A stretch of 40,386 bases of DNA from a virus (lineage: Duplodnaviria > Heunggongvirae > Uroviricota > Caudoviricetes): the IMG/VR virus record IMGVR_UViG_649989946_000002; one strand, 5' to 3'. This document shows, piece after piece, positions 1,153 through 36,502 of this stretch; positions within the stretch are counted from its first letter, which is position 1, and every line of letters begins with the position of its first letter. The translations under genes and the position numbers were made by a program. Under the pieces are notes generated by a model, which was not told the DNA's origin, searched no databases, and worked only from the letters and a program-made list of their open reading frames with translations.

Positions 1153-4100
1153 TCAGCTGATACTGATGCCTGCGGTGGCTTTCTTCATCACCACAACCAG
1201 CAAATCGCTGATACTTGCTGTGGGATACCAGTCATTTACCAGCCATGATGACACCGAAAACTCCAGCGTCATGTGGCCGCGACCAGCTGGCATATCAATA
1301 ACACCACTGTAAATCAGCGTATTATCCAGCGCGGTACGGTTATAAATTTCAGCACCGTTTTTCCGTACTATCAGGCGGCATGACGAATAAATATCGTTAT
1401 TCTCCCGCTCATGTTTAGCGCCGCTGAATGCCACCGCCGGAATAACAATTTGCCTGTCAAAAGGCTGATCGTCATAAATCCTGACGGTAATGGTCCCTGA
1501 TGGCCACCGCTCCGGTGCCCGGGAGTCCCGCGGGAAAGCCTTACCCACTGTTTTGACAATATCGCCTTCAATCTGGTTGGCTGACAGTTTCCCTTTAATC
1601 TGACAGTTCTCATTTATCGTAACGTTGTTGAGCGTCCCGGAGTTCGCATTCACACTGCCACTGATATCTGCATTTTTAGCGGTCAGCTTTCCGTCCGGTG
1701 TCAGGGAAAATGCAGGAGGATTACCGCCGCTGGTAATGGTGGGAGCCGTCAGATATTTCAGGAACACTTCATTCATGAATATCTGATCACCCTGACCAAC
1801 AAACATCGGTTTTGTGTTGCCATTTGCAGGATTAATCATCGCAATCCTGTCTGCCGCCAGCAGCACCTGACTCTGCATGCCGTCGGGGGTGTTCTCAATA
1901 CCGGCACCGATACCCGCGATATAAAGGCGTCCGTCCTGCATCTGCTGCAGCTTCACAGCCCACATGCTGTTCAGATTATTATTTGTATCAACCTGAACCT
2001 TCTGTATCTGCTGGATCGCTGCACTCTGGTCTTCCAGTTTCTTATTGACGGTCTGTGTGATTTCATTGCTGACATCCGTAATGGATGTCCTGATTTCAGC
2101 CAGGTCAGGCGCAAGCTGACCGTTATCAATCTGCGTCCACAGCTCCTGAGCCAGATGGGTTTTCCCTATCTCGCCTTTGAAAAAATCCAGATAGCCGGAT
2201 GCGTCATCACTCGGCTGACCAACAGCCTCCACGAATGCCGATTTGCCAACGGTGTTCACACTGCGAACGTAAAAATAATAATTATGGCCCGGTTTGATAT
2301 TGATACTGGCGGCTATCCAGTACAGCGCCGTACCAAGATAGCGGGCTGTGGTTTCAACCTGCCTGATATCCGCAATCCGTTTTTCCGAGAACCAGAACTC
2401 AAACTGTACCGTCGGGTCATAAACCGCAAGATGTGGCGTGGCGGTTATCTGAAAATAGCCCGGTGTCAGCTCAATCCGAGACGGCGCTGCCGGTGCGGCA
2501 ATCCGGAACGATACCGATGCCGGATCGCCCTGCAGCTCCCACGCATTTACCGCCCGGACCGTCAGCATGTAACGCCCCAGCGCCAGTTGCGTGAAGCGGT
2601 ATGTGGTTTCCGTCGTCCTGGCCGTGCTGACCAGCCGCTCACTGCCATCGTCCGCTGCCACGGTCAGGCGAAGCAGGAAGCTCACGCCCTTCACCACCTT
2701 CGGCGTGTCCCAGCGCGCCAGCACCTGATATTCCCCACTGTCTGCGGTGACTTCGGCGGTCAGGTGCTGCACCGCTGGCGGCGTGACACCATTCACCGTG
2801 CCGCTCTGGTCGCCGTCAAAGTGCGCCCCGTTATCCACGATGGCTTCTTTTTCCGGTACATGCTGCACGGCAGTGATGGCATACGTGCCGTCATCGTTCT
2901 CACGGATACTCACACAGCGGAACAGGCGCTGACGCAACGTCGGCAATTTCAGCCCCCACACGCTGTATTCTGCAACGCCGTCAGGAACCCGGTTCACTTT
3001 CACCTTAAGTCCGTCGGTGACGGACTGAACCTCCACGCTGACCGGATTACCACTTCCGTCAACCAGGCTTATCAGCGTGGTACCGGAGGATGGCAGCGTG
3101 ATTTCACGGTCGAGCGTCAACGTCCGGGTCTGGCTGTTTACCGCCAGCACGCGACCACCGGTGCTGATACCGGCATAGTCATCATCGCAGATTTCAATGA
3201 CATCGCCCGGTACATGGCGAAGCCCTTCAGCACCCACGCTGAAATCCACGGTCTGCGTCTCCAGCAGTTCCGTTTTAATCAGCCACAGCCCGGCGCGGTG
3301 TGCCTGCCCCCGACTGGTACAGCCAAAGGCATCCATCTTCGTGACGTTACGACCGTAACGGGCAATGGCCTGCGTGTCCTCCACAAGCTCTGTCGCCGTC
3401 TCCCAGCCGTTATCCGGGTCAATCCAGTTCACCTCAACGGCATTATGGCGGTCTTTCAGGGCGCTGAAGCTGTAGCGGAACGGCGCGCCATCATCCGGCA
3501 TCACCACATTGCTGCGGTTATAGATCCACACCTTATCCGACGGTCGGTCCTGCACGAATGTCAGCGTCTGCCCGTTCCATACCGGCATACAGCGCATCGC
3601 CGAGCAAAAATCACTGAGAACATCCCACGCCTTGCGCTGTGTGGTCAGCCAGGCATTACAGGTGATGCGCGGCTCCGTGCCACCAAAGCCATCCGGCACC
3701 GACTGGTCGCAATTCTGGCCGATGACATACAGCGCCCATTTGTCCACATCCGCCGCACCGAGACGCTTCCCCATGCCGTAGCGCGGATGGGTCAGCATAT
3801 CCCACAGACACCAGGCCATGTTGTTGCTGTATGCTGGCTTAAACGTTCCGTCCCAGATACCGCTGTATTGCCGCGTCTGCGGGTTATAGTTCGACGGCAC
3901 CTGCAGAATGCGCCCGCGAAGATGATAATTACGGCTCACCTGCTGGCTGCCGAACTGTTCCGAGTCCACCTGCACGCCGACCAGTGCCGTGTTCGGGTAG
4001 CACTGTTTCACATCGATGATTTCGGTGTATGACGACCAGAGCGTTTTGTTCTGCAGCTGGTCTGTGGTGCTGTCCGGCGTCATTCTGCGCATCCGGATAT

Positions 4101-4632
4101 TAAACGGGCGCGGCGGCAGGTTATCCACCACCACCGAGGCCAGATACTGCGAGGTGGTTTTGCCCTTAATGGTGATGTCTTTTTCCGTCACCCAGCCACC
4201 ATTACGCTGTATCTGAACCAGCAGGCGAACTTCCGACGGATTCCGGTCCCCCTTTGAGGTGGTTTCCACCAGTGCCTGCACACCGAAGGTAAAGCGCAGT
4301 CGGTCGATGTTTGCCGACGTGATGGCGCGGGTGATCGGCGTGTCGTATTTCACTTCCGTACCCAACACCGTCTCGGAGCCGGAGGATTCAAATCCCTCCG
4401 GCGGAGTCTGCTCCTGCTCACCAGCCCGGAACACCACCGTGACACCGGCGATGTTGGTATTCCCATCACTGTCCAGCACCGGCGTACTGTTCAGCAGCAC
4501 GCTTTTTAATCCATCCACCGGACCTTCAATCGGCCCTTCACTGATGGCATCAATCACACTCAGCAACTGCGTGGACTTCAGGTTGTCCTTCGCTTCGCGC
4601 GGGGTATGCCCCTTACTGCTTCCTTTACCCAT
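1153..4632 (-). CDS. J: Tail tip / host-specificity protein J (central tail fibre)
   Basis: 1159-aa ORF, N-terminus [45 protein letters not shown] typical of lambda J; gene order I-J-lom. Confidence 0.95.
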
Positions 4633-4692: not shown

Positions 4693-5364
4693 TCAGCGAC
4701 CAATCACCACAACCTGACCACCGTCCCCTTCGTCTGCCGTGCTGATCTCCTGAGAAACCACGCGTGACCCCACGCGCATTTCACCGTACAGAACCGGCAG
4801 AACATTGCCCTGGGCAACCATGTTATCCAGTGAGGAGAAATAGGTGTTCTGTTTGCCGTTATCCGTTGTCTGTGTACGGGGAGTTCTGGCTTTCGGTGCC
4901 AGCATCTGCGCCACACCACCGAGCACCATACTGGCACCGAGAGAAAACAGGATGCCGGTCATACCACCGGCCCCAATGGCTGCCCCCCATGCTGCAAGGG
5001 TGGCTCCGGCGGTAAAGAATGATCCGGCAATGGCGGCAGCCCCCAGGACAATCTGGAATACGCCACCTGACTTGGCCCCGGCGACTCTGGGAACAATATG
5101 AATCACAGCGCCATCAGGCAGAGTCTCATGTAACTGCGCCGTTAACCCGGACGTGCTGACGTCCCGCCCGGCAATCCGTACCTGATACCAGCCGTCGCTC
5201 AGTTTCTGACGAAACACCGGGAGCTGTGTGGCCAGTGCGCGGATGGCTTCAGCCCCCGTTTTCACACGAAGGTCGATGCGGCGGCCAAATCGTTGCAAAT
5301 CCCCGTAAAGGCAGATGCGCGCCATGCCCGGTGACGCCAGAGGGAGTGTGTGCGTCGCTGCCAT
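4693..5364 (-). CDS. I: Tail assembly protein I
   Basis: 223-aa ORF, same length as lambda I, overlaps 3' end of K by about 100 nt as in lambda; hydrophobic C-terminal half. Confidence 0.9.
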   Translation of the reverse strand: MAATHTLPLASPGMARICLYGDLQRFGRRIDLRVKTGAEAIRALATQLPVFRQKLSDGWYQVRIAGRDVSTSGLTAQLHETLPDGAVIHIVPRVAGAKSGGVFQIVLGAAAIAGSFFTAGATLAAWGAAIGAGGMTGILFSLGASMVLGGVAQMLAPKARTPRTQTTDNGKQNTYFSSLDNMVAQGNVLPVLYGEMRVGSRVVSQEISTADEGDGGQVVVIGR

Positions 5365-6005
5365 TTGTCGGTATACCTCTCTCGTTTGCTCAGTTGTTCA
5401 GGAATATGGTGCAGCAGCTCGCCATCACCACAGTAAATGGCGGCATGATTCGGCACCGATGAACCAAAACAGCACAGCAGCACATCGCCCGGTTGTGCTG
5501 ATGACAACGGCACCTGATACAGCCCTGTGGCCTCCAGATTATCCAGATAGAGATTCTGACCGTGACGCCACCAGTCATCCTCGCGATGAAAATCCGGCAT
5601 CTCAATCCCCGCCAGATGATAAGCATCCCGGAACAGCGTGTAACAGTCCGTCACCCCGTGCTCAAAGCGCCGCCCTGTGAGATGCGGCACACAGCGGAAC
5701 TTATGAATCGTCCCCCGGCAGACCAGCCACCACGGCAAATCACTCTGCACCTGCAGCCGCCGGTCGGCCTCACTCAGCCAGGGCAGACCACCGGGGTGGC
5801 TGTGGACCAGCGCCACAATCTCACCCTGCATTTCTGCCTGCAGCCAGTCTTCCGGCGACATACGGAAATACGCCTCCGGCTCACCGGAGATATTCACGCA
5901 GGGGAAATATCTTTCCCCCTCCGGCGTGCTTACCACGAAGCCGCACGACTCCGCTGGCGCACATCGCCGGGCGTGCGCCAGAATCGCTGATTCTGTCTGT
6001 GTCAT
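5262..6005 (-). CDS. K: Tail assembly protein K (JAB/MPN plus NlpC/P60-like); true start may be the internal Met at 5861
   Basis: 247-aa ORF MTQTESAILAHARRC... with HSHPGG (JAB) motif; follows L. Confidence 0.85.
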   Translation of the reverse strand: MTQTESAILAHARRCAPAESCGFVVSTPEGERYFPCVNISGEPEAYFRMSPEDWLQAEMQGEIVALVHSHPGGLPWLSEADRRLQVQSDLPWWLVCRGTIHKFRCVPHLTGRRFEHGVTDCYTLFRDAYHLAGIEMPDFHREDDWWRHGQNLYLDNLEATGLYQVPLSSAQPGDVLLCCFGSSVPNHAAIYCGDGELLHHIPEQLSKRERYTDKWQRRTHSLWRHRAWRASAFTGICNDLAAASTFV

Positions 6006-6010
6006 GGGAT

Positions 6011-6708
6011 TTACTGCGAAAGTTTGTTAATGGAAAGGAAGCCGCCAAAGTTGCCGACGTTATTGCGGAACTTACAACCGCTCAGGCATTTGCTGCATTT
6101 ATCCTTCGTGATATCGGACGTTGGCTGGTCATATTCATCCGCGACCGCCGGACCGTGATAACCGCACTCATCGCCGCGATAGGTCCAGGTGCAGGTGTTG
6201 GCCAGCATGATACGTCCCGGAAAAACAGCGCCGTCCGTTTCCGTCGGCGTGGACAGTACAAAAGAGGCACTCACCGCGCTCAGTTCGCTGCACTGCTCAA
6301 TGCGCCAGCGGCTGATCACCTCCTGCTCCGGATCGGCGTCACTGTTTCCGTTGACGAAGTTCACCGCATCCAGAAAACGGGCGTAAACCTTACGCCGGAC
6401 CACCGTTCCGCCGACCAGACTCTGCAGATCTTCCGCCATCCCGGTGACCATACCGTACAGGTTAGAAACCGTCAGCGTGGGGCGCGTACTGGTGCCTTTG
6501 CCATTCAGTTCAAAACCACTCCCCTGAATGGGATACGGCTGATACTGTCGCCCCTGCCAGGTGACCGGCTCACCTTTTTCGTTCTGCTCATTACAGAAAA
6601 ATAACGTTCTCCACCGACCTCTGTCAGATCGATTTCCCAGAGCACCACGCTGGCAGACTGCTCCGCACGGGTGCATTCATTCAGTGTTTCCTGCCGGATA
6701 TCCTGCAT
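6011..6708 (-). pseudogene. L: Minor tail protein L, reading frame broken by 1-nt deletion in a homopolymer (forward A5 at 6597-6601)
   Basis: ORF 6505..6708 gives MQDIRQETLNECTRAEQSASVVLWEIDLTEVGGERYF then diverges; ORF 6011..6676 carries FFCNEQNEKGEPVTWQGRQ... onward; one extra T would join them into a ~232-aa L. Confidence 0.8.
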
Positions 6709-7037
6709 CAGTTCACCACCTGTTCAAACTCTGCGCTGAACTCAACACGCAGCATACTGACCCGCGACGACCATTTTGCGCAGGTCACCTTTATCTGCCG
6801 CCACTCATAAGGCGGCGTCCACAGAAAGGATTTCCAGCCCCCGTGCTCAGCCAGAAACGACTCAAGCGCCGTGGCCTCCCAACGGGGAACAGAAAGCGTC
6901 ACGCTGTACGTTTTCAGGTCGGCATTCAGCCCGGCAGGCGCTCGCTGGGAATAGCCATCACCAAAGCGCACCTTTCTTACGGAAGGGGCCGAAGCCACAT
7001 CCATACCGGGTTTCACTTTCCAGCGGAAGGTCTTCAT
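6708..7037 (-). CDS. M: Minor tail protein M
   Basis: 109-aa ORF, lambda M length and position (between H and L). Confidence 0.9.
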   Translation of the reverse strand: MKTFRWKVKPGMDVASAPSVRKVRFGDGYSQRAPAGLNADLKTYSVTLSVPRWEATALESFLAEHGGWKSFLWTPPYEWRQIKVTCAKWSSRVSMLRVEFSAEFEQVVN

Positions 7038-9613
7038 CGTCCACCTCCGGAGAACAGACCACCATCGCGCATCTGTGCCTGAATTTCATCACGGGCACCC
7101 TTGCGGGCCATGTCATACACTGCCTTCATCATCTGTGGACCTGGCAGACCATTCGTACCGTCGTTCTGAATCACCACGTGATTGTTCTGATTAAAATTAA
7201 TGCCTTCAGCCCGCCGCATCTGCGCCGGACTTCCGGCACCGCCCACATAACCACCTTCCGCATAGCCCCGCATCAGGCGGTACAGGTTGCCGACACCAAT
7301 TCGGCTGGTTGCCTCCTTCGTGAAGACAAATTCACCACGGTGAACAATCCCCGCTGGCTCATATTTGCCGCCGGTTCCCGTAAATCCTCCGGTTGCAAAA
7401 TGGAATTTCGCCGCAGCGGCCTGAATGGCTGTACCGCCTGATGCGGATGCGCCGCCACCAACAGCCCCGCCAATGGCGCTACCGATACTCCCGACAATCC
7501 CCACCATTGCCTGCTTAAGCAGAATTTCTGTCATCATGGACAGCACGGAACGGGTGAAGCTGCGCCAGTTCTGCTCACTGCCGGTCAGCATCGCCGCCAT
7601 ATTCTGCGCAATACCATCAAAGGTCTGCGTGGCTGCACTTTTAACCTGCGACATACTGTCCGTGGCGCTCTCTTCCCACTCACTCCAGCCGGACCTGAGG
7701 CCTGCCATCCAGCTCCCGCGAAGCTGGTCTTCAGCCGCCCAGGTCTTTTTCTGCTCTGACATGACGTTATTCAGCGCCAGCGAATTATCGCCATACTGTT
7801 CCTTCAGGCGCTGTTCTGTGGCTTCCCGCGCTGCCTGCCGGTCAGTAAGCCCCCGGTTTTTCGCCTCAATGGCTGCCCGTTTTGCCCGTTGTTGCTGTGC
7901 GAACTTATCCGCCTGCTGCGCCAGCGCGTTCAGGCGCTCCTGATACGTAACCTTGTCGCCAAGTGCAGCCAGCTGGCGTTTGTACTCCAGCGTCTCATCT
8001 TTATGCGCCAGCAGGGATTTCTCCTGTGCGGACAGCTGGCGACGTTGCGCCGCCTCCTCCAGTACCGCGAACTGACTCTCCGCCTTCCACAAATCCCGGC
8101 GCTGCTGGCTGATTTTCTCATTTGCTCCGGCATGCTTCTCCAGCGTCCGGAGTTCAGCCTGAAGCGTCAGCAGGGCAGCATGAGCACTGTCTTCCTGACG
8201 ATCGCCCGCAGACACTTTCACGCCGGACTGTTTCGGCTTTTTCAGCGTCGCTTCATAATCCTTTTTCGCCGCCGCCATCAGCGTGTTGTAATCTGCCTGC
8301 AGGATTTTCCCGTCTTTCAGTGCCTTGTTCAGTTCTTCCTGACGGGCAGTATATTTCTCCAGCGGCGTCTGCAGGCGTTCGTAAGCCTTCTGCGCCTCTT
8401 CGGTATATTTCAGCCGTGATGCCTCAGACTCGGCCCAGTCATTTGCTGCCATCTCTCTGGCCTTTTCAAGATCGGCCTGCAACGTGGCGGCTGAAAGCCC
8501 AAGTTGCGCATTCGCTCTGTCCTCCCATGCTCCCCGGAGATTGGCAAGAAATGCTGAGGTTTTACCGCGCCGGTGGCTTCGGCTCTGATACCACTGCCAT
8601 TTTTTGTCCGCCTCATCAAAAGCCTTTTCTGCTTTCTCCAGCATTCCCTGGGCAGTGTCCGGGCGACCAATATCCAGCACCGAATCCCACATGGATTTGA
8701 ATGCCCGTGCTGTCCTGTCTGCCCAGGTCTCCAGCGTGCCCATGTTCTCTTTCAGGCGGCGGGTCTGGTCATCAAACCCTTTCGTTGCGGCCTCGTTCGC
8801 CGCCTGCAATGCCCCGGCTTCATCTCCGGAACGCTGCAACTGAGCAACATACGCAATCTGCTCCGCCGTCACGTTATGGAACTGACGTGCCATCGCTGTC
8901 AGTCCCGACGTCGGGTCTGTGGTCAGCTTCCCGAAGGCTTCAGCGACCTTGTCCACCTCCACGCCGGATGCAGAGGAGAAACGCGCCACACTCTGGCTGA
9001 TCGCCTCAAACTGCTCACCACCACGCACACCGGCATTCACCAGCGCCGTCAGTGACTCGCTGGTCTGGTTAAACGTCAGCCCTGCCGCCTGCCCGGCTCT
9101 GGACAGGGCCAGAATACGATCTGCCGTCAGTCCCGCCTGATTGCCGGAAAGGACCAGCGTTTTGTTGAAATCGGACAGGGTTGAGTTGCCCTGATACCAG
9201 GCATACGCCAGCGCACCGGTCGCCACCGCCAGCGAGGTGGCCCCCACCATCGGCAGGGTGATCGCACCGGCAAGCCCCCTGAACATGGGGATCATCCCGC
9301 CGAAGGAGTCCTTAACCTGACCACCCTGTTGCAGCAGGATCAGCCACGGACTTTGCCCGCCTGCAAGCTGCGTGGCCACGTCGGTGAACTGTGCAGGCAG
9401 CATACGCATGGCGGCTTTATACTGCCCGACGGAAATCCCCGCTTTCTGTGCAGCCAGCGCCTGTCGGCTCAGCGACTGTTCAACGACTGCCGCTGTTTTT
9501 TTCGCATCAGTTTCCGTACCGGAAAAATGACGCCTGACTCTGGCCATCTGCTCGTCAAATCTGGCCGCATCCAGACTTAAATCAACGACCAGATCGCCTA
9601 CCGGTTCAGCCAT
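7034..9613 (-). CDS. H: Tail tape-measure protein H
   Basis: 859-aa ORF, MAEPVGDLVVDLSLDAARFDEQMARVRRHFSG..., long coiled-coil middle, C-terminal ...RDGGLFSGGGR as in lambda H. Confidence 0.95.
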   Translation of the reverse strand: MAEPVGDLVVDLSLDAARFDEQMARVRRHFSGTETDAKKTAAVVEQSLSRQALAAQKAGISVGQYKAAMRMLPAQFTDVATQLAGGQSPWLILLQQGGQVKDSFGGMIPMFRGLAGAITLPMVGATSLAVATGALAYAWYQGNSTLSDFNKTLVLSGNQAGLTADRILALSRAGQAAGLTFNQTSESLTALVNAGVRGGEQFEAISQSVARFSSASGVEVDKVAEAFGKLTTDPTSGLTAMARQFHNVTAEQIAYVAQLQRSGDEAGALQAANEAATKGFDDQTRRLKENMGTLETWADRTARAFKSMWDSVLDIGRPDTAQGMLEKAEKAFDEADKKWQWYQSRSHRRGKTSAFLANLRGAWEDRANAQLGLSAATLQADLEKAREMAANDWAESEASRLKYTEEAQKAYERLQTPLEKYTARQEELNKALKDGKILQADYNTLMAAAKKDYEATLKKPKQSGVKVSAGDRQEDSAHAALLTLQAELRTLEKHAGANEKISQQRRDLWKAESQFAVLEEAAQRRQLSAQEKSLLAHKDETLEYKRQLAALGDKVTYQERLNALAQQADKFAQQQRAKRAAIEAKNRGLTDRQAAREATEQRLKEQYGDNSLALNNVMSEQKKTWAAEDQLRGSWMAGLRSGWSEWEESATDSMSQVKSAATQTFDGIAQNMAAMLTGSEQNWRSFTRSVLSMMTEILLKQAMVGIVGSIGSAIGGAVGGGASASGGTAIQAAAAKFHFATGGFTGTGGKYEPAGIVHRGEFVFTKEATSRIGVGNLYRLMRGYAEGGYVGGAGSPAQMRRAEGINFNQNNHVVIQNDGTNGLPGPQMMKAVYDMARKGARDEIQAQMRDGGLFSGGGR

Positions 9614-11207: not shown

Positions 11208-11603
11208 TCACATTTCATAGGTAATGACATAAGTCAGATCGGCTGAACTCCACAGGCCCGCATCATCGTCGCGCCGGTAGTCATAGCCGCTGGCCACCAT
11301 ACTGGTGATCAAATCTGACAGTGCCGGGATATCGCTCATCACCGGATAAATCCGGGACTCCATCCACGAATCCAGCTCTGAATCCGGCACCTGAGCAGGC
11401 AGGAAAACTTCAATATGCAGCTCCGCCTGCCAGGTATCGCTGTCCAGCTCTTCGCCCGTGTATTCAGCGCCGGTGAGATAAACGGCAATTGCCGGAAAAT
11501 CCGCCTCATCAAAAACAGCGGGGCGACCATCAAAAAGCGTCGCCCCGGTGTCATGCTTCTCCAGTGCATCCAGTACGGCTGCACGGAGTTCAGTATGTTT
11601 CAT
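11208..11603 (-). CDS. U: Tail terminator protein U
   Basis: 131-aa ORF, lambda U length and position between Z and V. Confidence 0.9.
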
Positions 11604-12177
11604 CGCTTTATTACCATTCTCAGTTGATGCTGCAGCGCATAGCCCAGCTCTTTCGGAAGACGTTCACGCCGTATCCGTTCAATATTCTGTTTAAACGCCG
11701 TGGTCAGCGGCACCGCCATCGGGATTTTCACCACATCAATGGGGTAACGGTTTTTCCCGGCCACACGCTGCATGACATGCCACCGGCCATTTTTCAGTTG
11801 CTGAATAAACGCGCCGGGAATACGACGGTTTCCCACCACAAGCACGCTGCCGCCACCTTTCAGGGCTGAACGCTGCCCCTTTTTACGACGTCTGCGGCGG
11901 GAAAGGACAACCCGCGCGTTACCCAGCCTGATTACGGGCAAATCCCCCGGTTAACCCTGATTCTGGCCTGCGGATTTTTGACCGTGGCCCTTTTCAGCCT
12001 GGCCCTTTCCTTTACCAGTTTCCGGCGTACCTTTGTCTCACGGGCAACCTGTGCCACCGACTGCGATATCGCGGATGAAGCAACGCGGTTAATGGCCATT
12101 GCGGCGGCACCGGGCACCGCCGTTCTGCTGATACGGCTGAGGTTTTCAACGGCCTGCTCAAGACCTTTTATGGCCAT
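11600..12177 (-). pseudogene. Z: Tail completion protein Z, frame broken by 1-nt indel at a G5 run (forward C5 at 11944-11948)
   Basis: ORF 11932..12177 gives MAIKGLEQAVENLSRIS...ARIRVNRGICP*, ORF 11600..11941 gives (L)PVIRLGNARVVLSRRRRRKKGQ...; together 192 aa as in lambda Z. Confidence 0.8.
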
Positions 12178-12990: not shown

Positions 12991-14016
12991 TTACGCCAGT
13001 TGAACGGACACGAACTCATCAGGATCAGCCAGCAGCATCAGCGGTGCTGACTGAATCATGGTGAACTCTCGCGCCGGATCGCCGGATGTCTTCCAGTTTT
13101 TCGGATAACGGGGAGACGCATTAATACCCTCACTCAATGCATCCGCATCCTGAATACAGCCATAGGTGCGCAGACCGCGTGCATGAGTGTTACCCAGCAC
13201 CATCGTGTCGTCCGGCAGGAAGTTCTTTTTGACGCCGTTTTCCACGTACTGTCCGGAATACACGACGATGGCCACATCGCCATACATCCCCTTATAGGAC
13301 ACCGCTTTACCCAGGTCTTTCACCGCTGTCTCCAGCTCGGAATGAGAGCCGCGACGGGTATCCAGCTTCTCCTTGACGGCTTTGAAGGAACGGAACAGCG
13401 CCCAGCCTTTCGGATCAAACACGATGATATTCACCACGCCGCTGGCGTTCAGCGCGTAGGCTTCGATATCGTCGGTCGGGTCATACGTGGACTTGTCACG
13501 CTTGCTCCACTCCGTGCCGCCGGACTGCGTGATGTTGTTCGCCGCACTGCGGCCCATATCCACCTCAACCGGATCGAAGGCTTCACCGGTCATGGTGTAT
13601 TTGCCCTTGAGCACGGCAGAAACTGCCTGCATCTCTTCGACCTGAGCAATGGCCAGCTCTTCGTCACGCATGTTCTGCAGGATGATGCGACGGCGGCGGT
13701 AAGCCGGGTCCGCCAGATTCTGCGGATCTTCATCCGGCAGGCGATGCAGGGTCATCTGCGGATTCACTTCATGCTTGGGTTTGACATATCCCGGCGTAAA
13801 TTCAGAGGTGGAGCCGCCACGGGAACGGATAACCTCACCGGAAACAATCGGCGAAACGTACAGCGCCATGTTTACCAGTCCCGGAATTTGTGAGAGATAG
13901 ACTTTCTCCGTAGTGAAGGGATAGCTCTCACGGAAAAAGAGACGCAGAAACAGCGGATCAAACTTAAATTTCTGCTCATTTGCCGCCAGCAGCTGGGCGG
14001 TTGTGTACATCGACAT
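12991..14016 (-). CDS. E: Major capsid protein E
   Basis: ORF contains MSMYTTAQLLAANEQKFKFDPLFLRLFFRESYPF...; 341 aa from the MSMYT start. Confidence 0.95.
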   Translation of the reverse strand: MSMYTTAQLLAANEQKFKFDPLFLRLFFRESYPFTTEKVYLSQIPGLVNMALYVSPIVSGEVIRSRGGSTSEFTPGYVKPKHEVNPQMTLHRLPDEDPQNLADPAYRRRRIILQNMRDEELAIAQVEEMQAVSAVLKGKYTMTGEAFDPVEVDMGRSAANNITQSGGTEWSKRDKSTYDPTDDIEAYALNASGVVNIIVFDPKGWALFRSFKAVKEKLDTRRGSHSELETAVKDLGKAVSYKGMYGDVAIVVYSGQYVENGVKKNFLPDDTMVLGNTHARGLRTYGCIQDADALSEGINASPRYPKNWKTSGDPAREFTMIQSAPLMLLADPDEFVSVQLA

Positions 14017-14071
14017 AAAAAAATCCCGTAAAAAAAGCCGCACAGGCGGCCTTTAGTGATGAAGGGTAAAG

Positions 14072-14404
14072 TTAAACGATGCTGATTGCCGTTCCGGCAA
14101 ACGCGGTCCGTTTTTTCGTCTCGTCGCTGGCAGCCTCCGGCCAGAGCACATCCTCATAACGGAACGTGCCGGACTTGTAGAACGTCAGCGTGGTGCTGGT
14201 CTGGTCAGCATCAACCGCCAGAATGCCAACGGCAGCACCGTCGGTGGTGCCATCCCACGCAACCAGCTTACGGGTGGAGGTATCCAGCATCAGCGGGGTC
14301 ATTGCAGGCGCTTTCGCACTCAATCCGCCGGGCGCGGTTGCCGTATGTGCCGGGTCACTGTTGCCCAGCGGCTGGTAATGGGTAAAGGTTTCTTTGCTCG
14401 TCAT
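14072..14404 (-). CDS. D: Head decoration protein D
   Basis: [39 protein letters not shown]..., 110 aa from MTSKE. Confidence 0.9.
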
Positions 14405-20543: not shown

Positions 20544-20928
20544 ACATCCCGGTTTCTTGACCTTCCCTCCCTCCCCGCACAGAACTGGCGAGCGTGAGGG
20601 ACCAATATGTGAGCCATAAATGCCTTATCTTCAGAAATGTAGTTGGTATCCGAATAGAACGATATTGTAAATTCACCTAAATACGAGGCATTGCTGTAGT
20701 TGAATTGCAGTACTGTATTAGCCTGACAGTGACAGAATACGATATTGACTCTGTCACTTGTGAAATGGTCAGAATGGTTAGCAGTTATGGTGATCAGTCA
20801 ACCACCAGGGAATAATCCTTCGTATTCTTATCGTGCTTTACTAACGCGGCCTCAATTGCCCTGTGATCTTACCCAGCAATAGTGGACACGCGGCTAAGTG
20901 AGTAAACTCTCAGTCAGAGGTGACTCAC

Positions 20929-21228
20929 ATGACAAAAACAGTATCAACCAGTAAAAAACCCCGTAAACAGCATTCGCCTGAATTTCGCAGTGAAGCCCTG
21001 AAGCTTGCTGAACGCATCGGTGTTACTGCCGCAGCCCGTGAACTCAGCCTGTATGAATCACAACTCTACAACTGGCGCAGTAAACAGCAAAATCAGCAGA
21101 CGTCTTCTGAACGTGAACTGGAGATGTCTACCGAGATTGCACGTCTCAAACGCCAGCTGGCAGAACGGGATGAAGAGCTGGCTATCCTCCAAAAGGCCGC
21201 GACATACTTCGCGAAGCGCCTGAAATGA
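20929..21228 (+). CDS. insE: IS3 OrfA (InsE-like, HTH/leucine zipper)
   Basis: [54 protein letters not shown]... Confidence 0.9.
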
Positions 21229-22091
21229 AGTATGTCTTTATTGAAAAACATCAGGCTGAGTTCAGCATCAAAGCAATGTGCCGCGTGCTCCGGGTGGCCC
21301 GCAGCGGCTGGTATACGTGGTGTCAGCGGCGGACAAGGATAAGCACGCGTCAGCAGTTCCGCCAACACTGCGACAGCGTTGTCCTCGCGGCTTTTACCCG
21401 GTCAAAACAGCGTTACGGTGCCCCACGCCTGACGGATGAACTGCGTGCTCAGGGTTACCCCTTTAACGTAAAAACCGTGGCGGCAAGCCTGCGCCGTCAG
21501 GGACTGAGGGCAAAGGCCTCCCGGAAGTTCAGCCCGGTCAGCTACCGCGCACACGGCCTGCCTGTGTCAGAAAATCTGTTGGAGCAGGATTTTTACGCCA
21601 GTGGCCCGAACCAGAAGTGGGCAGGAGACATCACGTACTTACGTACAGATGAAGGCTGGCTGTATCTGGCAGTGGTCATTGACCTGTGGTCACGTGCCGT
21701 TATTGGCTGGTCAATGTCGCCACGCATGACGGCGCAACTGGCCTGCGATGCCCTGCAGATGGCGCTGTGGCGGCGTAAGAGGCCCCGGAACGTTATCGTT
21801 CACACGGACCGTGGAGGCCAGTACTGTTCAGCAGATTATCAGGCGCAACTGAAGCGGCATAATCTGCGTGGAAGTATGAGCGCAAAAGGTTGCTGCTACG
21901 ATAATGCCTGCGTGGAAAGCTTCTTTCATTCGCTGAAAGTGGAATGTATCCATGGAGAACACTTTATCAGCCGGGAAATAATGCGGGCAACGGTGTTTAA
22001 TTATATCGAATGTGATTACAATCGGTGGCGGCGGCACAGTTGGTGTGGCGGCCTCAGTCCGGAACAATTTGAAAACAAGAACCTCGCTTAG
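21225..22091 (+). CDS. insF: IS3 OrfB (InsF-like DDE transposase; made as OrfAB by -1 frameshift)
   Basis: 288-aa ORF overlapping orfA in the -1 frame; DDE integrase-core motifs (WAGDITYL..., HTDRGGQY..., [17 protein letters not shown]). Confidence 0.9.
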
Positions 22092-22556
22092 GCCTGTGTC
22101 CATATTACGTGGGTAGGATCACTGAATGCTTCCAGAGATACTTGATGTTCTATACATGCAATTACAACATCCGGGTAACCCATCGAAATGGTGCTATTAA
22201 GCATAGTTTTTACACGAACCTGCTCCTGGGAGGGGGCATCAATGTATTGATCTTTATGCATTTTGTCGCTCCATTCGTTTGCTCTTCACTTGCGGCTAAA
22301 AATATAACGTCAAATCACTCAGCATGAAAGAGTGAAAGTTTCAGCGCGTTTCCCTTACATAATCTGTCGTTTGTATTCTCTTCAGGCATACCGGAAAGAC
22401 TAGGTATTGTCACACAACCAATACCATCGACAATCGAGATTTATATCTATTCGGTAATGTTTAAATATAACAAAACCCCGTAAAAACGAGGTTTATGGGT
22501 AATTTGTATTGTTGAATAGCATCTGATGAGAAATTGATGCTAATACTATAAACATA

Positions 22557-23058: not shown

Positions 23059-23173
23059 GATGGTGTTAACTCCGGTCATCACTGGCACTACCATTGCTGG
23101 TTCAGAGTTAAAAAAACTATTATTTTTTCATATGTTACCGTAATATGTGAGTATCCATCGACTAGACACTAAG

Positions 23174-23977: not shown

Positions 23978-24470
<493 letters not shown>

Positions 24471-25059: not shown

Positions 25060-25374
25060 CTAACAACCCGTAATCGAGTTATCTGAACTGTTAATTTTTA
25101 TGGTATACCGAGCCTCTGAACAGGGTCGCGTTTCTGGCAACAGCTCGTCCCCTTCACATAACCCGGCAGCAACATCCAGGAAGACCTGTCTGATGCTCCT
25201 TCTGGCTGCTGCCTCATAAAACTCCAGCGCGGCACCTTCAACATGGTCCAGCGAGATGTCCAGGTCAAAAATTTCACCGTCAAAGCGTTCTTTGTCCTGT
25301 AAGGCTACAGTTACCGTAACTTTATTCTCAAAATTACGGACTCCTTTCACAACCAGTTCATAGTCTTGAGTCAT
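25060..25374 (-). CDS. YdfR-like protein (DUF1327), sited between holin and endolysin
   Basis: 104-aa ORF MTQDYELVVKGVRNFENKVTVTVALQDKERFDGEIFDLDISLDHVEGAALEFYEAAARR... Confidence 0.7.
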   Translation of the reverse strand: MTQDYELVVKGVRNFENKVTVTVALQDKERFDGEIFDLDISLDHVEGAALEFYEAAARRSIRQVFLDVAAGLCEGDELLPETRPCSEARYTIKINSSDNSITGC

Positions 25375-25378
25375 TGGA

Positions 25379-25594
25379 TTACTCTCCTCTCGCAGCCTTA
25401 CGCCTGTCTTCTTTAATCTTGAAATAAAGATTTGTCAGATACGTCAGCAGGCCAAAAACCAGGCTACCCAGCACACCGATTGCAGCCCACTGTGACGGAG
25501 TTACTTTATCGAGTAACTGCAATGCCCAGAAACCAGCATTACCCGCCGATGTGCCATAGGCAACACCTGTTGTTAACTTATCCATTGATTTCAT
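25379..25594 (-). CDS. Phage-21-type pinholin (S21/EssQ-like) with dual-start motif MKSM
   Basis: [71 protein letters not shown]; two TM segments, charged C-terminus; ORF track extends it to 25669. Confidence 0.85.
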
Positions 25595-25810
25595 ATCCTC
25601 ACCCCGATGTACACGGATGGTGCAATATGTTTGAAAAGATCGGAGTCTACGGGGTAGTTTTGACAGCACACGTTGTTCTCAACGGCGCTAAAAAAACATA
25701 CACATTAAAAATGTGGGTAATTATTTTGAAAGAAAGTCATATATAAAATAATAATACGAGAAATGTTTTCATATTTAGTGTACTGTATACGGCCATTTAT
25801 ACAGGAAAAG

Positions 25811-25984
25811 CCTATGTCAGAACGTAAAAACTCAAAATCACGCCGTAATTATCTCGTTAAATGTTCCTGCCCAAACTGCACCCAAGAGTCAGAACACAGT
25901 TTTTCAAGAGTACAAAAAGGTGCCCTTTTGATCTGCCCTCATTGCAACAAAGTATTCCAGACAAATCTTAAAGCTGTAGCCTGA
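25811..25984 (+). CDS. Small zinc-ribbon protein (CxxC...CxxC), possibly YnfU-like
   Basis: MSERKNSKSRRNYLVKCSCPNCTQESEHSFSRVQKGALLICPHCNKVFQTNLKAVA (56 aa); followed by a hairpin terminator. Confidence 0.55.
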   Translation, partial: PMSERKNSKSRRNYLVKCSCPNCTQESEHSFSRVQKGALLICPHCNKVFQTNLKAVA

Positions 25985-26041
25985 TTGATTTTATTAGTAA
26001 CAAGTATTTTTTATATTTTAATAATATATTTAAAGCAGATA

Positions 26042-26066
26042 ATAAAAAACCCGCCTGAGCGGGTTT
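26042..26066. terminator. Bidirectional hairpin terminator (zinc-ribbon gene on + and cspB on -)
   Basis: AAAAAACCCGC-CTGA-GCGGGTTT with A/T runs on both sides. Confidence 0.5.
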
Positions 26067-26347
26067 GAGATTGTGGTGCTTTTTGTGGGAGTCATCCACT
26101 TACGCACTTTGTTTTGCCATGCCAGCAGTTAGCTTCTGCTGTAAAACTATTCATGCAGCAAACCTGCACTTCACCACAATGGTTAGCATACTTTTCCTGA
26201 TTAAGATTTTGCCAAATATGCTAGCCATTGTTTCATGTATTGGACCTCCTTACTTTTTATTAAAGAGATCCAATATTCACTACTCTGTCCGTATCTCTAC
26301 TCAGGCATCAGCCTTCTTCGTTATCGTATACAGACGAGCGATGAATT

Positions 26348-26563
26348 TTAATCAGTAATGATGACATTTGCTGCTGCAGGACCTTTAGCACCACTCTCTA
26401 TAGAGAAGGTAACCTTTTGACCTTCAAATAAGGTTCGATAATTATCATTCTGAATCGCAGAAAAATGCACAAACACATCTTTACTACCATCAACAGGAGA
26501 AATAAAGCCGAAACCTTTATCAGCGTTAAACCATTTTACTAAACCAGTCATTTTATTTGACAT
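26348..26563 (-). CDS. cspB: Cold-shock protein, CspB-like
   Basis: 71-aa [70 protein letters not shown]... Confidence 0.9.
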
Positions 26564-26862
26564 TCTACATTCCTTAACTTGAGCCTTTCGGCATAAATGG
26601 TTTGCATAACAGAAACGACTTCGTACTTAATTGGAGAGACTCAAAGAAGGAATAAGTGAATAACACCTGAAATGAGAACTGCTTTAGTAAACTACTTCGT
26701 ATATCGTCTGTTCTTCAAACCGACGCAATCATTAACGCATAGTTGAACATATGAAGCAATGTTTATTTTAGACATCCAGCCGTCTTCAACCCCATCAAAA
26801 AACTATAGCTTTCTTCAGGAACGTGTGTATAGTGCGCCAAGTTATCAGTATTAAGGAATTTT

Positions 26863-27075
26863 TTGTCCCGTAAAATGACAGGAATTGTCAAAACCTTTGA
26901 CGGCAAAAGCGGCAAGGGTCTTATCACCCCATCCGATGGTCGTATCGATGTCCAGCTTCATGTTTCAGCGCTCAATCTCCGCGATGCAGAAGAAATTACC
27001 ACCGGATTACGCGTGGAATTTTGCCGGATAAATGGTCTGCGTGGCCCTTCAGCTGCCAATGTTTACCTTTCATGA
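26863..27075 (+). CDS. cspF: Cold-shock-domain protein, CspF-like (divergent)
   Basis: 70-aa [73 protein letters not shown]. Confidence 0.85.
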
Positions 27076-27374
27076 GCTATATTAAAGCTTTAATTTCAGG
27101 CCCCATCGGATCACACATGGAGAGTTTTTATGAATAACCCCGTCTGTCTTGATGACTGGTTGATTGGCTTTAAAAGCTTATGCTGTACTTTGGCCGTAAT
27201 AGCTCTGCTAATAATATAATAAGCAGACTCATTGTGTTTAGGGACATTGTACTGGAAGAAAACATTTTAAACATCAGGCAAATAACCAAGTCACCAGCTA
27301 AATAATAAGTTAACAGACATGAGTCCCGGGATGAGATTCAACATTACCATTGCCCCATTTAAAGCACAAAACCC

Positions 27375-27405
27375 GCTCATCAGCGGGTTTTCTACTTTTT
27401 CTTAA
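27375..27405 (-). terminator. Hairpin terminator downstream of Q (tR'-like position)
   Basis: AAAACCCGCT-CATC-AGCGGGTTTT with flanking A/T runs, about 200 nt downstream of the Q stop on the minus strand. Confidence 0.45.
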
Positions 27406-27605
27406 CGTCGGGTATACAAAGCCCATCGTTGAAAAATTTTATCCATATTTTTTGAAAAATGCAAACATCATGTCGCCATCTTCAGCAAAAATCATTTATC
27501 TCGTCACCTTCCTCAATTGCGCTTCCGCGTATGCTTCTTCCTGCCAGCACTTTGTTACCAGTTTACCAATGACGTCCGCATACCCCTTATACCACTGATA
27601 ATCGG

Positions 27606-28277
27606 TCAGGTCTGGTACCAGCTTCTGGACATGACGTCGTGCCAGCGTGGTCGGTAAACGACTAAACCGGTTTCCATTACAACGCCCACAAATCTTATAT
27701 ACCGGTACGCCATGAAACCGGGTTCTTTTTCATCCAGAACAATCCCTTTACCCTTACACCCTCTGCACGCTGTGCTGGCTTCGCCCTTACCATGGCAATG
27801 CTGACATAGTTCCTTCACCCATTCTTCCTTGATTACAGATTCCCCGCGTCTGTAGTGTTTCACCACTTCGCGCAATACATTATAAAATCCCGTACCTGAA
27901 CAATGCTCACAGCGAGCCTTACTTGCCGCAGACCTGGAGTAATCAGCAAAGGCAAAACTCACGAGGTAAGGAATAATCTGTAACCGGATTTCTTCACTCA
28001 ATTTGTTCAATGTCGGGTTATCCAGTGCCATCGCGTAATTTAGCAGGCCTTCAATCGCAAACTGAGGGTCCTGAACACCAACTTTTGCCAGAAATAAGGC
28101 CAACCCAAGTGGTGCTTTCGACTGCACCATCCCCTGCGCTGCCATTACATCCGTAATTGTTAAACAACCGGTGCCTGTCGCTGGAGCGTCATCGCTCAAT
28201 TTTGGAGATTTTGGGGAGTAATATTTTGGTAAGGCTTCAAGGTTCATGCTCGTTCTCCACTTACGCCAGTACGCCAA
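27606..28277 (-). CDS. Late-gene antiterminator Q (QuuQ/phage-82-type, zinc-binding)
   Basis: 223-aa ORF with CxxC...CxxC cluster (CEHCSGTG...CQHCHGKGEASTACRGCKGKG); position between nin-like genes and lysis cassette. Confidence 0.75.
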   Translation of the reverse strand: MAYWRKWRTSMNLEALPKYYSPKSPKLSDDAPATGTGCLTITDVMAAQGMVQSKAPLGLALFLAKVGVQDPQFAIEGLLNYAMALDNPTLNKLSEEIRLQIIPYLVSFAFADYSRSAASKARCEHCSGTGFYNVLREVVKHYRRGESVIKEEWVKELCQHCHGKGEASTACRGCKGKGIVLDEKEPGFMAYRYIRFVGVVMETGLVVYRPRWHDVMSRSWYQT

Positions 28278-29097
28278 TTGCCAGCGCGCGATCGATAAAA
28301 CGAAATATCAGCTCCAGTTGGGAGCCATACTTATCTTCAAATGCCACTGTATCCGTATGCAGCTCGTTGTGATGCTTTCTGCACAAAGGCAACACAAAGA
28401 GATCATGTGCTTTTGTTCCCATTCCGCCCTGCCCGTGACCAATCAGATGATGCGGATCGTCGGCTGGCATACCGCAGCAAGCACACGGCTGTGTCTTAAC
28501 CCAACGTGTGTATTTCTCCTTAACCCAGCGGCGACGTTTAGGCAGCTTCATGAAAGATTCCGGAGACTCTGGATCAACGGTGATGCTTACCACCGTCTTT
28601 TCCTGTGGTGATTTTTGTTGCTGGTGGGCGTAAGGCAACGGTGCAAGATTTTTTGTGCGTTGTTTCAATATGCTGGTGGCGGTCTGCTCTCCCGGTACGA
28701 TGTCGCTTTCGCGGTACACCGAGCAGATTTTTTCCGCTGGTAATCCCAGCGAACGACGCGATACAGCCTCAGGTAGTGCATCCACCACCTGATTGCAGAC
28801 CGCCCACCAGGATAATTCAGCCAAAGATAATTCCCGCTCCTGCGTACCGCTTATTGCGTGACGGATGACGTCAATCACCCATGCTGTCAGATTTTGTTGA
28901 GCAAGCAGCTCCAGTGATTCCGATGTCTGGTCACGCAGTTGGTTGTCGCAGTGCCAGCACAACACCATTGCGCCGGTACCATAACGGTGAATGACTGTTT
29001 CAGTGTGATGGTAATCGCCATTAGGCCACTGGCAGGATGTAACATGACGTAATAGCCAGTCGGACAATGCGCCAACGCCGCCAGCAGCACGAATCAC
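28261..29097 (-). CDS. YdfU-like DUF968 protein with C-terminal HNH-like motif
   Basis: 278-aa ORF; C-terminus CACCGMPADDPHHLIGHGQGGMGTKAHDLFVLPLCRKHHNELH; ATG overlaps the upstream ORF stop (ATGA). Confidence 0.65.
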   Translation of the reverse strand: MIRAAGGVGALSDWLLRHVTSCQWPNGDYHHTETVIHRYGTGAMVLCWHCDNQLRDQTSESLELLAQQNLTAWVIDVIRHAISGTQERELSLAELSWWAVCNQVVDALPEAVSRRSLGLPAEKICSVYRESDIVPGEQTATSILKQRTKNLAPLPYAHQQQKSPQEKTVVSITVDPESPESFMKLPKRRRWVKEKYTRWVKTQPCACCGMPADDPHHLIGHGQGGMGTKAHDLFVLPLCRKHHNELHTDTVAFEDKYGSQLELIFRFIDRALAIGVLA

Positions 29098-29348
29098 CCG
29101 TTCGTTACTAAAAACGGCAGCAATGTTTTGTCTTCCGCCAGCGGCTGGCGAACGGCAGGAACGACTCCGGATGGCAGATTACGCATGCTTTTTGGTTCCG
29201 GTTCCACCAGCACTCGAGGATTATGAAATATCTGTATGGATTCACGGCCCGGCTTAAGGACCACCAGCCCAAGCTCAGGCACCAGAACAGGTCTAAGTAA
29301 TACCCGCACGTTACCTCCAGATCCGTTGCTGGAAAGTGCGGGACGCAC
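29094..29348 (-). CDS. Hypothetical protein (84 aa), possibly the N-terminal part of the DUF968 gene
   Basis: ORF whose stop overlaps the DUF968 ATG; low-complexity sequence, weak support. Confidence 0.3.
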   Translation of the reverse strand: MRPALSSNGSGGNVRVLLRPVLVPELGLVVLKPGRESIQIFHNPRVLVEPEPKSMRNLPSGVVPAVRQPLAEDKTLLPFLVTNG

Positions 29349-29589
29349 GTGGTGGGCGTTCGGAATAAGGCAGCCTGACAGAGATTATCCAGTGCCGATA
29401 GTCGAGACTGAGAGCTTTCTTAACCTCGAACCCGCGCCTGCGGTAAGAATGAATCAGCCATTCGGCCTGTTCTGCAGTGCATGGAGGGTGCTGGAACCAT
29501 TCAGACTTGAATGCGTGAGAATACCGCCCGTGCGTGCAGGCAAGAACGGGCGAATTATCAGAATTGTAATATTTTGCGTTGCGTGCCAT
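29311..29589 (-). CDS. Hypothetical protein (92 aa)
   Basis: ORF MARNAKYYNSDNSPVLACTHGRYSHAFKSEWFQHPPCTAEQAEWLIHSYRRRGFEVKKAL...; nin-region position. Confidence 0.4.
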   Translation of the reverse strand: MARNAKYYNSDNSPVLACTHGRYSHAFKSEWFQHPPCTAEQAEWLIHSYRRRGFEVKKALSLDYRHWIISVRLPYSERPPRASRTFQQRIWR

Positions 29590-29655
29590 CGGTTTTCTCC
29601 GGTGGCACGGTGTTACTCAGCGGGAGTTCAGCCCCGCGCAAGATTGTAGATGAGT

Positions 29656-29907
29656 TTATTCTCCTGAAAAAGCAGAAAAGCCAGCTTTTATTCCGATCTC
29701 TTTCAATGCCTGTAATGAAGTGACAAACTCACCTTCGCGCAAGATAAATCCGTCCGTGACCCGAGCATCCACAAAATTAATTAACGCAGCCCCATTCTTT
29801 CGCAAACACATAATGCGGTAATGACTAACAAGATTTCCATTTTCAACGCACACAGCATAGAGGCCATCTTCACAAAAAATTTTACGCAGTTCTTCGATGT
29901 TCATCAT
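29656..29907 (-). CDS. Hypothetical 83-aa protein (position and length fit Qin Rem; identity not verified)
   Basis: ORF MMNIEELRKIFCEDGLYAVCVENGNLVSHYRIMCLRKNGAALINFVDARVTDGFILREGEF... Confidence 0.5.
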   Translation of the reverse strand: MMNIEELRKIFCEDGLYAVCVENGNLVSHYRIMCLRKNGAALINFVDARVTDGFILREGEFVTSLQALKEIGIKAGFSAFSGE

Positions 29908-30123
29908 CAGAATCCTTCCGGATAATTAGCTCTCCCCTTTAAGGGACCATCCCTCTTATCCCTGCGCGCTACTTAAGTATTTTTGATTCTATTCCGGCAC
30001 CGTCCAGAACTTCAAACGCGTTGAAAATAAAAACAAAAACCCGCCGAAGCGGGTTAAGTGCGGGTGCGTTGAGGATGCCTGCCACATCAGAGGTGGCGAG
30101 GGATTTCTCCCCCGCCGGGTCTC

Positions 30124-30279
30124 TTACTCCTCAGGTTCGTAAGCTGTGAAGACAGCGACCTCCGTCTGGCCGGTTCGGATTCGTACCTCGCAGAGGTCTT
30201 TCCTCGTTACCAGTGCCGTCACTATGACGGTTAAACAGATGACGATCAGGGCGATTAACATCGCCTTTTGCTGCTTCAT
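30124..30279 (-). CDS. hokD: Hok-family membrane toxin HokD (RelF), 51 aa; absent from the ORF track
   Basis: Hand translation of the minus strand: MKQQKAMLIALIVICLTVIVTALVTRKDLCEVRIRTGQTEVAVFTAYEPEE*. Confidence 0.9.
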   Translation of the reverse strand: MKQQKAMLIALIVICLTVIVTALVTRKDLCEVRIRTGQTEVAVFTAYEPEE

Positions 30280-30350
30280 AGCCTGCTTCTCCTGTCAACG
30301 CAAAGCAGAAGTGTCACCTTCGGTGCGAAACAGAGATGTCATGCTTTGGT

Positions 30351-30638
30351 TCAGAGAATGCGTTTGACCGCCTCGCTATATACTTCCGAGCGTTCTCTTT
30401 TCCCAACAGAAATCACGAAAACGACAACTTTCTCGTCTATAACCTGGTATACAAGGCGATAGCCTGAAGACCGGAGCTTAATCTTGTAACAATCAGGCAT
30501 ACCACGGAGCTTGTTTGCTTCAATCCGGGGTGACTCAAGTACTTCAACCAGCTTCTTTTTCAACTGTTCACGTACCGTCGAGCCCAGCTTTCGCCATTCC
30601 TTTAGTGCCCGCTCGTCAAAATCCAGAAAATACGCCAT
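30351..30638 (-). CDS. relE: mRNA interferase toxin RelE
   Basis: 95-aa ORF MAYFLDFDERALKEWRKLGSTVREQLKKKLVEVLESPRIEANKLRGMPDCYKIKLRSSGYRLVYQVIDEKVVVFVISVGKRERSEVY... Confidence 0.95.
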   Translation of the reverse strand: MAYFLDFDERALKEWRKLGSTVREQLKKKLVEVLESPRIEANKLRGMPDCYKIKLRSSGYRLVYQVIDEKVVVFVISVGKRERSEVYSEAVKRIL

Positions 30639-30877
30639 CAGAGTTCATCCAGCGTCACACGTACTGGCTTAGGATTACGAAGCCGTTCTTTCACTATCTC
30701 CACAAGTTCAGCATCTTCATCACTCAGGAGTGTCTGTTTGAACGGCAAGCGTTCATTGTCAGCGATATACTCGAGCATGAGACGAAGCGCTTCAGAAGGA
30801 GTTACACCCATTTTTTCAAGCGCGGCGTAAGAACGCGCTTTAAGTTCATCGTCAATACGCAGGTTAATGCTACCCAT
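30638..30877 (-). CDS. relB: Antitoxin RelB
   Basis: 79-aa ORF MGSINLRIDDELKARSYAALEKMGVTPSEALRLMLEYIADNERLPFKQTLLSDEDAELVEIVKERL...; stop overlaps relE start. Confidence 0.95.
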   Translation of the reverse strand: MGSINLRIDDELKARSYAALEKMGVTPSEALRLMLEYIADNERLPFKQTLLSDEDAELVEIVKERLRNPKPVRVTLDEL

Positions 30878-30887
30878 GTCTTACACC

Positions 30888-30916
30888 TATTGTAATTACA
30901 AATGTCATTACAAGTA
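30888..30916 (-). promoter_or_regulatory. relBE operator (relO) / promoter region
   Basis: Adjacent imperfect palindromes TTGTAATTACAA and TTGTCATTACAAG immediately upstream of relB. Confidence 0.6.
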
Positions 30917-31359
30917 TCGCACTACAACATGCTTAGGGCAAGTCACGAAGGAAGTCAGAAAGTAGTCGTAAGAACGGTGATCACTGTCCGCTTTGTGCCA
31001 GGAGCAGCCATTGCTAAGTCCATCCTGTATTGTGCAGGTCAGCTCGTTTTTAAAGAGTCCGGCCATCATCTTACTGGTACAGACACCATATACTTTGTGA
31101 CGGTCAGGCTACATATGCACAACTCAACTTATTCATCTATTTTTTGCTTTAGCATGTCAGTGTTGCTTTCTCGTCGGCGGGTGAGCGGTGACCTGACCTG
31201 TCGATAAAGGAACGTAGCACGTTTTATGCAACACCCGCATGCGGCAGAAAATTATTGCCGAACGTTTACCCCTGTCAACAAGCTTTACTTTCTGAGGCGC
31301 GCCAGCCCGCGAGGAAAACAATCTGAACATCAAACAATTAATGACACAAGAAATACGAT

Positions 31360-31385
31360 TAAAGATTTTTTGTGCATGCCGATAG
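31360..31385 (+). promoter_or_regulatory. Sigma-28 (FliA)-type promoter upstream of flxA
   Basis: TAAAGATT-N10-GCCGATAG resembles the TAAAGTTT-N11-GCCGATAA consensus, about 25 nt upstream of the flxA ATG. Confidence 0.6.
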
Positions 31386-31408
31386 TGCTTTTTTAAAAGG
31401 AGAAATCT

Positions 31409-31726
31409 ATGTCTGTCACAATTCAGGGAAATACCTCAACCGTTATTTCAAACAACTCCGCCCCGGAAGGAACATCAGAAATAGCCAAAATCACAAGACA
31501 AATTCAGGTGCTGACTGAAAAGCTTGGGAAAATCTCATCGGAAGAGGGGATGACGACACAGCAGAAAAAAGAAATGGCTGCATTGGTACAGAAGCAAATT
31601 GAAAGCCTCAGGGCTCAACTGGAGCAGTTGTTAAGGCAGCAGGCAGAGAAAAAGAATAAAGACGCGACAGTTCAGCCTGATAAAAAGAAGAGAAAAAGAC
31701 GATACAAATACCGCTGGCACCATTGA
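31409..31726 (+). CDS. flxA: FlxA-like protein
   Basis: 105-aa ORF MSVTIQGNTSTVISNNSAPEGTSEIAKITRQIQVLTEKLGKISSEEGMTTQQKKEMAALVQKQIESL... with basic C-terminal tail. Confidence 0.8.
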   Translation: MSVTIQGNTSTVISNNSAPEGTSEIAKITRQIQVLTEKLGKISSEEGMTTQQKKEMAALVQKQIESLRAQLEQLLRQQAEKKNKDATVQPDKKKRKRRYKYRWHH

Positions 31727-31753
31727 TATTTACGTCTAAGTGACAGCCGTATT

Positions 31754-31776
31754 GTGGCCCTCATCGGGCCACTTTT
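31754..31776 (+). terminator. Rho-independent terminator after flxA
   Basis: GTGGCCC-TCATC-GGGCCAC followed by TTTT. Confidence 0.6.
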
Positions 31777-33969: not shown

Positions 33970-34009
33970 AAGTCCTCCTGAACATTACTTTATACCCTAA
34001 AATCAACAC

Positions 34010-35688: not shown

Positions 35689-35701
35689 CAAAGCCCCCCT
35701 C

Positions 35702-36501: not shown

Positions 36502-36502
36502 T

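Follow-up and report, generated by a model that had tools for sequence, protein, structure and literature searches.

The window, i.e., the whole stretch of 40,386 nucleotides of caudoviral DNA analysed here, carries a block of tail-tip genes in the order H-M-L-K-I-J, as indicated by the map of open reading frames (ORFs), the annotation of related genomes and Pfam searches with the neighbouring genes on the source contig. The ORF map places H at 7034-9613, M at 6708-7037, K at 5262-6005, I at 4693-5364 and J at 1153-4632, all on the minus strand, and the interval between M and K is occupied by a pair of overlapping ORFs that correspond to a single gene, the homologue of the phage lambda gene L encoding the tail-tip hub protein (6011..6708, minus strand). 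The gene is 698 nt long in the window, as compared with 699 nt elsewhere. Its counterpart in phage lambda (J02459.1, positions 13429-14127, annotated as L, 699 nt, 232 aa) shares 98.1% DNA identity with it, and this identity, together with a full-length match to the Pfam family PF05100 (Phage_tail_L), confirms the assignment to lambda L that the first-pass annotation had made from the letters of the sequence.

The frame of the L homologue is broken in the sequence as deposited. The coding strand reads TAT TTT TCT, with five T residues (five A residues on the forward strand, 6597-6601), where codons Phe37-Phe38 (TTT TTC) form a run of six in lambda and in the relatives. No uninterrupted single L frame is present in the deposited 698 nt, which are split at 6597-6601; since the break is read directly from the sequence, chance is not at issue. 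The upstream ORF (6505..6708, minus strand, 67 aa) starts MQDIRQETLNEC...GGERYF and comprises the true residues 1-37 of L followed by 30 out-of-frame residues. The downstream ORF (6011..6676, minus strand, 221 aa) contains a spurious out-of-frame leader of 25 residues, one coincidental Phe and then residues 38-232 of L, including ...FFCNEQNEKGEPV... and the normal C-terminus ...SINKLSQ. The break had originally been placed at this A5 run, and the coordinates of the run and of both ORFs were all correct; a comparison with the homologous lambda site, suggested at the same time, gave six T residues in lambda and five here.

The proposal that one extra base restores the protein was likewise borne out, as the insertion of one T after TAT TTT yields a full-length 232-aa product reading ...GGERYFFCNEQNEKGEPV.... 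A search with the repaired protein against PF05100 gave 336.8 bits over positions 1-206 of the 206-position profile, and the unrepaired 221-aa fragment scored 328.3 bits (gathering cut-off, 25 bits). The repaired L possesses Cys173, Cys182, Cys205 and Cys212, the positions of the [4Fe-4S] ligands in lambda gpL. No other damage was found in L, and the 195 codons downstream of the break are open.

The 221-aa product is identical to the GenBank entry EFQ02918.1, "phage minor tail protein L [Escherichia coli 1827-70]", and the exact product was found on a single contig, ADUK01000015.1, of the draft assembly GCA_000165655.2. Position 1 of the window lies 18 nt inside this contig, so that window positions 6597-6601 correspond to contig positions 6615-6619. 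We take GCA_000165655.2 to be a pyrosequenced, 2010-era draft of the Human Microbiome Project; a search of the literature on strain 1827-70 for the sequencing platform returned nothing relevant. The complete genomes nearest to the window are those of the strains VG1046-3E9 (99.5%) and STEC276, both with an intact L gene of 699 nt. In both genomes, the prophage is located at the Qin site, with ydfJ/ydfK/pinQ on one flank and cspI, rzpQ, rrrQ, essD, cspB/F, ydfT, ydfU, relBE, flxA and dicB on the other.

Several further features of the prophage deserve separate mention. An IS3 element at 20864-22125 lies 93 bp from the IS3 of VG1046-3E9 and in the opposite orientation, and the IS3 of STEC276 occupies a third position, which suggests that IS3 has inserted independently at nearby points between the ynfO-like gene and gnsB. 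The exact IS3 junction of the window was found in no complete genome; two matches scored as "100%" consist of split pieces spanning 450-520 bp. At position 383, the window has a one-base insertion outside any homopolymer (CACGAGG vs. CACAGG in VG1046-3E9), which frameshifts the side-tail-fibre gene stf (minus strand, start near 419) at about codon 14, about 400 nt from the contig end; this is an error or a mutation of a type distinct from the run contractions described below. Gene H (minus strand) differs from that of VG1046-3E9 by an in-frame 3-nt indel (GCC, 7454-7456), which is probably real allelic variation, because H of STEC276 has the same length as H of the window (2580 nt, 859 aa).

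The indels of the window were listed from its alignments to VG1046-3E9 (window positions 1-25791) and to NADC1036 (25169-40386). Thirteen single-letter runs proved to be one base shorter in the window, and no run was counted as expanded (two-sided binomial p = 0.0002). Within the tail genes, the L run (6597-6601) has A5 where the relative has A6, and a run in the homologue of the tail completion gene Z (11944-11948, minus strand) has C5 instead of C6. Further along, runs of the relative are shortened from A8 to A7 at 23110-23116, in a stretch without substitutions, from T7 to T6 at 23123-23128 and from T8 to T7 at 24389-24395. Six further runs are one base shorter than in both NADC1036 and K-12: T6 vs. 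T7 just upstream of cspF (26859-26864), A5 vs. A6 in an intergenic run (27432-27436), T5 vs. T6 in ydfT (27726-27730, minus strand), A5 vs. A6 in ydfU (29110-29114, minus strand), and A5 vs. A6 in each of two runs within flxA (31682-31686 and 31693-31697, plus strand), the K-12 genome compared being that of MG1655. The remaining two contractions are T6 vs. T7 in a run between ydfV and flxA (31366-31371) and A3 vs. A4 at 37914-37916, each in comparison with the relative. The lone candidate expansion (G3 to G4) is located close to the end of the contig, at 5 nt from the beginning of the window.

A tally of every run in the relatives by its length, against its length in the window, indicates a strong dependence of contraction on run length. 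No run of three (0/1374) or five (0/136) was shortened, and a single one was among the 410 runs of four; the counts rise to 7 of 45 for runs of six, three of nine for runs of seven and two of four for runs of eight, an enrichment in runs of six or more over shorter ones with a Fisher p of 1.6e-18. The flanking DNA is nearly identical between the genomes compared: no more than one substitution lies within 500 bp on either side of 10 of the 13 sites, and segment 22122-25791 contains three contractions and no substitutions. K-12 MG1655 has the same run length as NADC1036 at all seven of the run sites that it covers, and the window is therefore the outlier.

The contractions break or alter other conserved genes as well. 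The Z homologue is split into products of 81 aa and 113 aa (ORFs 11932-12177 and 11600-11941, minus strand), and the gene call of the source assembly for Z comprises the 113 aa only. ydfU is split into 84 aa and 278 aa, the C-terminus of ydfT, a homologue of the Q antiterminator, is altered, and so is the C-terminus of flxA, which contains both of its contracted A runs. The relatives have intact versions of all four genes, and so does K-12 for ydfT, ydfU and flxA.

The five-T allele of L is very rare. When 61 nt with the run in the middle were searched against 5426 complete E. coli genomes, 4112 of them gave a total of 7955 homologous places; an exact match to the five-T form occurs in no more than two records, and the remaining matches listed have the extra base. 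The allele occurs in none of 175 phage records, and the exact five-T 43-mer has no match in the GTDB species-representative genomes. Searches with the entire gene gave the same picture: among the matches listed, L is 699 bases long against the 698-base query, with the sole exception of CP025902.1, which was rejected as a second 698-nt carrier, as it has six T residues at the site and has lost a G elsewhere. The best full-length match, in CFSAN018748 (99.9% over 698/699), differs from the window by the gap alone, and thus L shows no other decay. Neither of the features that would mark a pseudogene, inheritance of the lesion by relatives or additional decay within L, was observed; the exact product is confined to one contig, and the gene is otherwise the intact allele.

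Proteins truncated in the same way do occur in other data. A protein cluster of 15 members breaks at the same ...GGERYF|S point in varied L backgrounds, as compared with a full-length cluster of about 10,000 members, which marks the site as liable to slippage of some kind, whether cellular or arising during sequencing. Two other T5 carriers were examined as DNA, and each has a second run-length error within 140 nt. In the complete genome of strain 377323_2f (NZ_CP039404.1, 1696714-1702774), GGG is called as GGGG 37 nt upstream of T5, restoring the frame, and a frameshift is flagged in each of H, M, K, I and J; this assembly looks error-ridden. In a Logan contig from ERR5984418, GGG is called as GG 140 nt downstream of T5. 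The T6 to T5 change at the L site is thus seen repeatedly in data sets with an evident tendency to error. As a separate observation, the L gene of 377323_2f is annotated as intact only by virtue of two opposite run-length errors that cancel each other, and these would scramble a stretch of 12 residues locally.

Taken together, these data make it very probable that the frameshift in L is a homopolymer under-call introduced at base calling or assembly, and not a biological defect. The indels considered are confined to runs and become more frequent with run length (13 sites), they have one direction (13 contractions, no expansions within runs), and independent genomes are consistent among themselves and differ from the window, both at the seven sites shared by K-12 and NADC1036 and at the L run, which is T6 in lambda and in thousands of genomes. 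As the L break is one among at least 12 one-base run losses in the window, a sequencing error is almost certain. The attribution to sequencing rather than to mutation is strongly supported by the nature of the lesions, their direction and length dependence, the conserved genes hit and the private character of the allele. The method behind the 1827-70 draft would have read long homopolymers systematically one base short, and in codons 37-38 of L it would have turned T6 into T5. The DNA of the organism itself most likely lacks the frame break, and would then contain an intact 699-nt L gene encoding a normal 232-aa tail-tip hub protein. The run-length error probably accounts for the truncated entry EFQ02918.1.

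A genuine T6 to T5 slippage mutation, which would have destroyed the function of L in a Qin-type prophage undergoing decay and left particles without a functional tail tip, appears unlikely against this background. A lesion of this kind would be in keeping with the position of the prophage at the Qin locus, where decay is common and where the relatives show degraded genes of the replication region, and with the presence of the IS3 insertion (20864-22125). Homopolymers are natural hot spots of indels; replication slippage in cells likewise favours runs and increases with run length, a point that counts against the artefact reading, and the truncated L stubs share their break codon on about 15 sequence backgrounds. 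However, a mutational origin would need 13 independent contraction-only events in DNA that is nearly free of substitutions relative to its neighbours, and would have to affect 16-50% of all runs of six or more; such a ratio of indels to substitutions, with such a bias of direction, fits no known mutational process. Moreover, a second lesion in L is absent, none of the related complete genomes has inherited the allele, and the other T5 carriers examined look error-ridden. The origin of the window in a mutator strain was also considered and rejected, as the contractions far outnumber the substitutions in the same stretches and go in one direction only. The first-pass annotation was thus right about the identity of the gene, the position of the break and its repair, but its suggestion of a real L defect giving tail-less particles is unsupported, since the L break belongs to a set of 13 run-length differences over the 40-kb window, all of them contractions and dependent on run length, a pattern that points to an assembly error instead.

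It is highly improbable that the five-T allele is real in 1827-70 and that a low level of -1 slippage in the P site, a "saviour" frameshift, supplies enough gpL for tail assembly, a scheme that presupposes the allele. The sequence TA[T TTT T]CT would let tRNA-Phe re-pair one base back, with TTC as the next codon and the wild-type ...Y F F C N... as the product, and stuttering of the RNA polymerase would be an alternative route to wild-type gpL; a run of five, however, is too short for efficient transcriptional slippage. A GGAG motif is located 7 nt upstream, and three copies of gpL suffice per virion, where the protein is a trimer (PMC10721106). Nevertheless, the heptamer U UUU UCU is not of the canonical X XXY YYZ type, and the A-site UCU cannot re-pair as UUC, which leaves slippage in the P site only. 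The predicted fold of 6500-6640 (minus strand) has a z-score of -0.72, with 49 of 200 shuffled sequences being at least as stable, and the upstream GGAG is part of the Gly-Glu coding sequence common to every in-frame homologue. The two-frame arrangement is found in at most two of the 7955 places, and nearly all homologues have T6 in frame. With no canonical heptamer, no structure and no conservation, a programmed or leaky -1 frameshift was rejected.

Under the preferred reading, a run-length error in the draft, the biological weight of the break is small, as L is most likely intact. The error load of the window (ADUK01000015.1, GCA_000165655.2) amounts to roughly one run-length error per 3 kb, and apparent frameshifts at runs of six or more in this assembly, including those in L, Z, ydfT, ydfU and flxA, should be treated as suspect; the breaks in these five genes should not be counted as pseudogenes, phase-variable switches or recoding sites.

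A comparison with the Qin prophage of K-12 reveals a similarity in gene content, with the nohA/ynfO region, cspI, rzpQ, rrrQ, essQ, cspB/F, ydfT, ydfU, rem, hokD, relBE, flxA and dicB having 97-99.6% identity. Unlike K-12 Qin, the window has a complete lambda-like head and tail module, running from Nu1 to J and followed by lom and stf, which has been lost in K-12 between nohA and stfQ. This module lies within window positions 1-20511, where stf is represented by its start, and in K-12 Qin nohA is fused beside stfQ (locus positions 5840-6919). The prophage of the window looks like a less-deleted form of Qin, because it keeps the head and tail module, of which K-12 retains only nohA next to stfQ.

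The L gene itself is a typical representative of the lambda gpL family. Lambda gpL is a trimeric tail-tip hub protein composed of an HDI-like domain (residues 1-166) and a C-terminal Fe-S domain, with Cys173, 182, 205 and 212 as the ligands of the [4Fe-4S] cluster (PMC10721106). The window gene resembles it in the DNA identity of 98.1%, the M-L-K-I-J gene order, the full-length Pfam match after repair and the four cysteines, and differs in lacking one T in codons 37-38, which splits the ORF into parts encoding 67 aa and 221 aa. With the programmed -1 sites of lambda G/GT and of dnaX, the L site shares a T-rich slippery stretch within a lambda tail gene, and the protein would be restored by a -1 shift, but the site has neither the canonical heptamer, nor a stimulatory structure, nor a conserved out-of-frame arrangement. 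We know of no recoding or phase-variation system that the L frame break fits. That single-nucleotide repeats may vary in length through artefact is an acknowledged concern for bacterial genomes sequenced at high throughput (PMC4746626), and it is the homopolymer errors of flow-based or noisy reads that the window matches in every respect compared: the differences are confined to runs, depend on run length, go in one direction, create spurious frameshifts in conserved genes and are surrounded by identical flanks, a pattern with no difference from this class of error.
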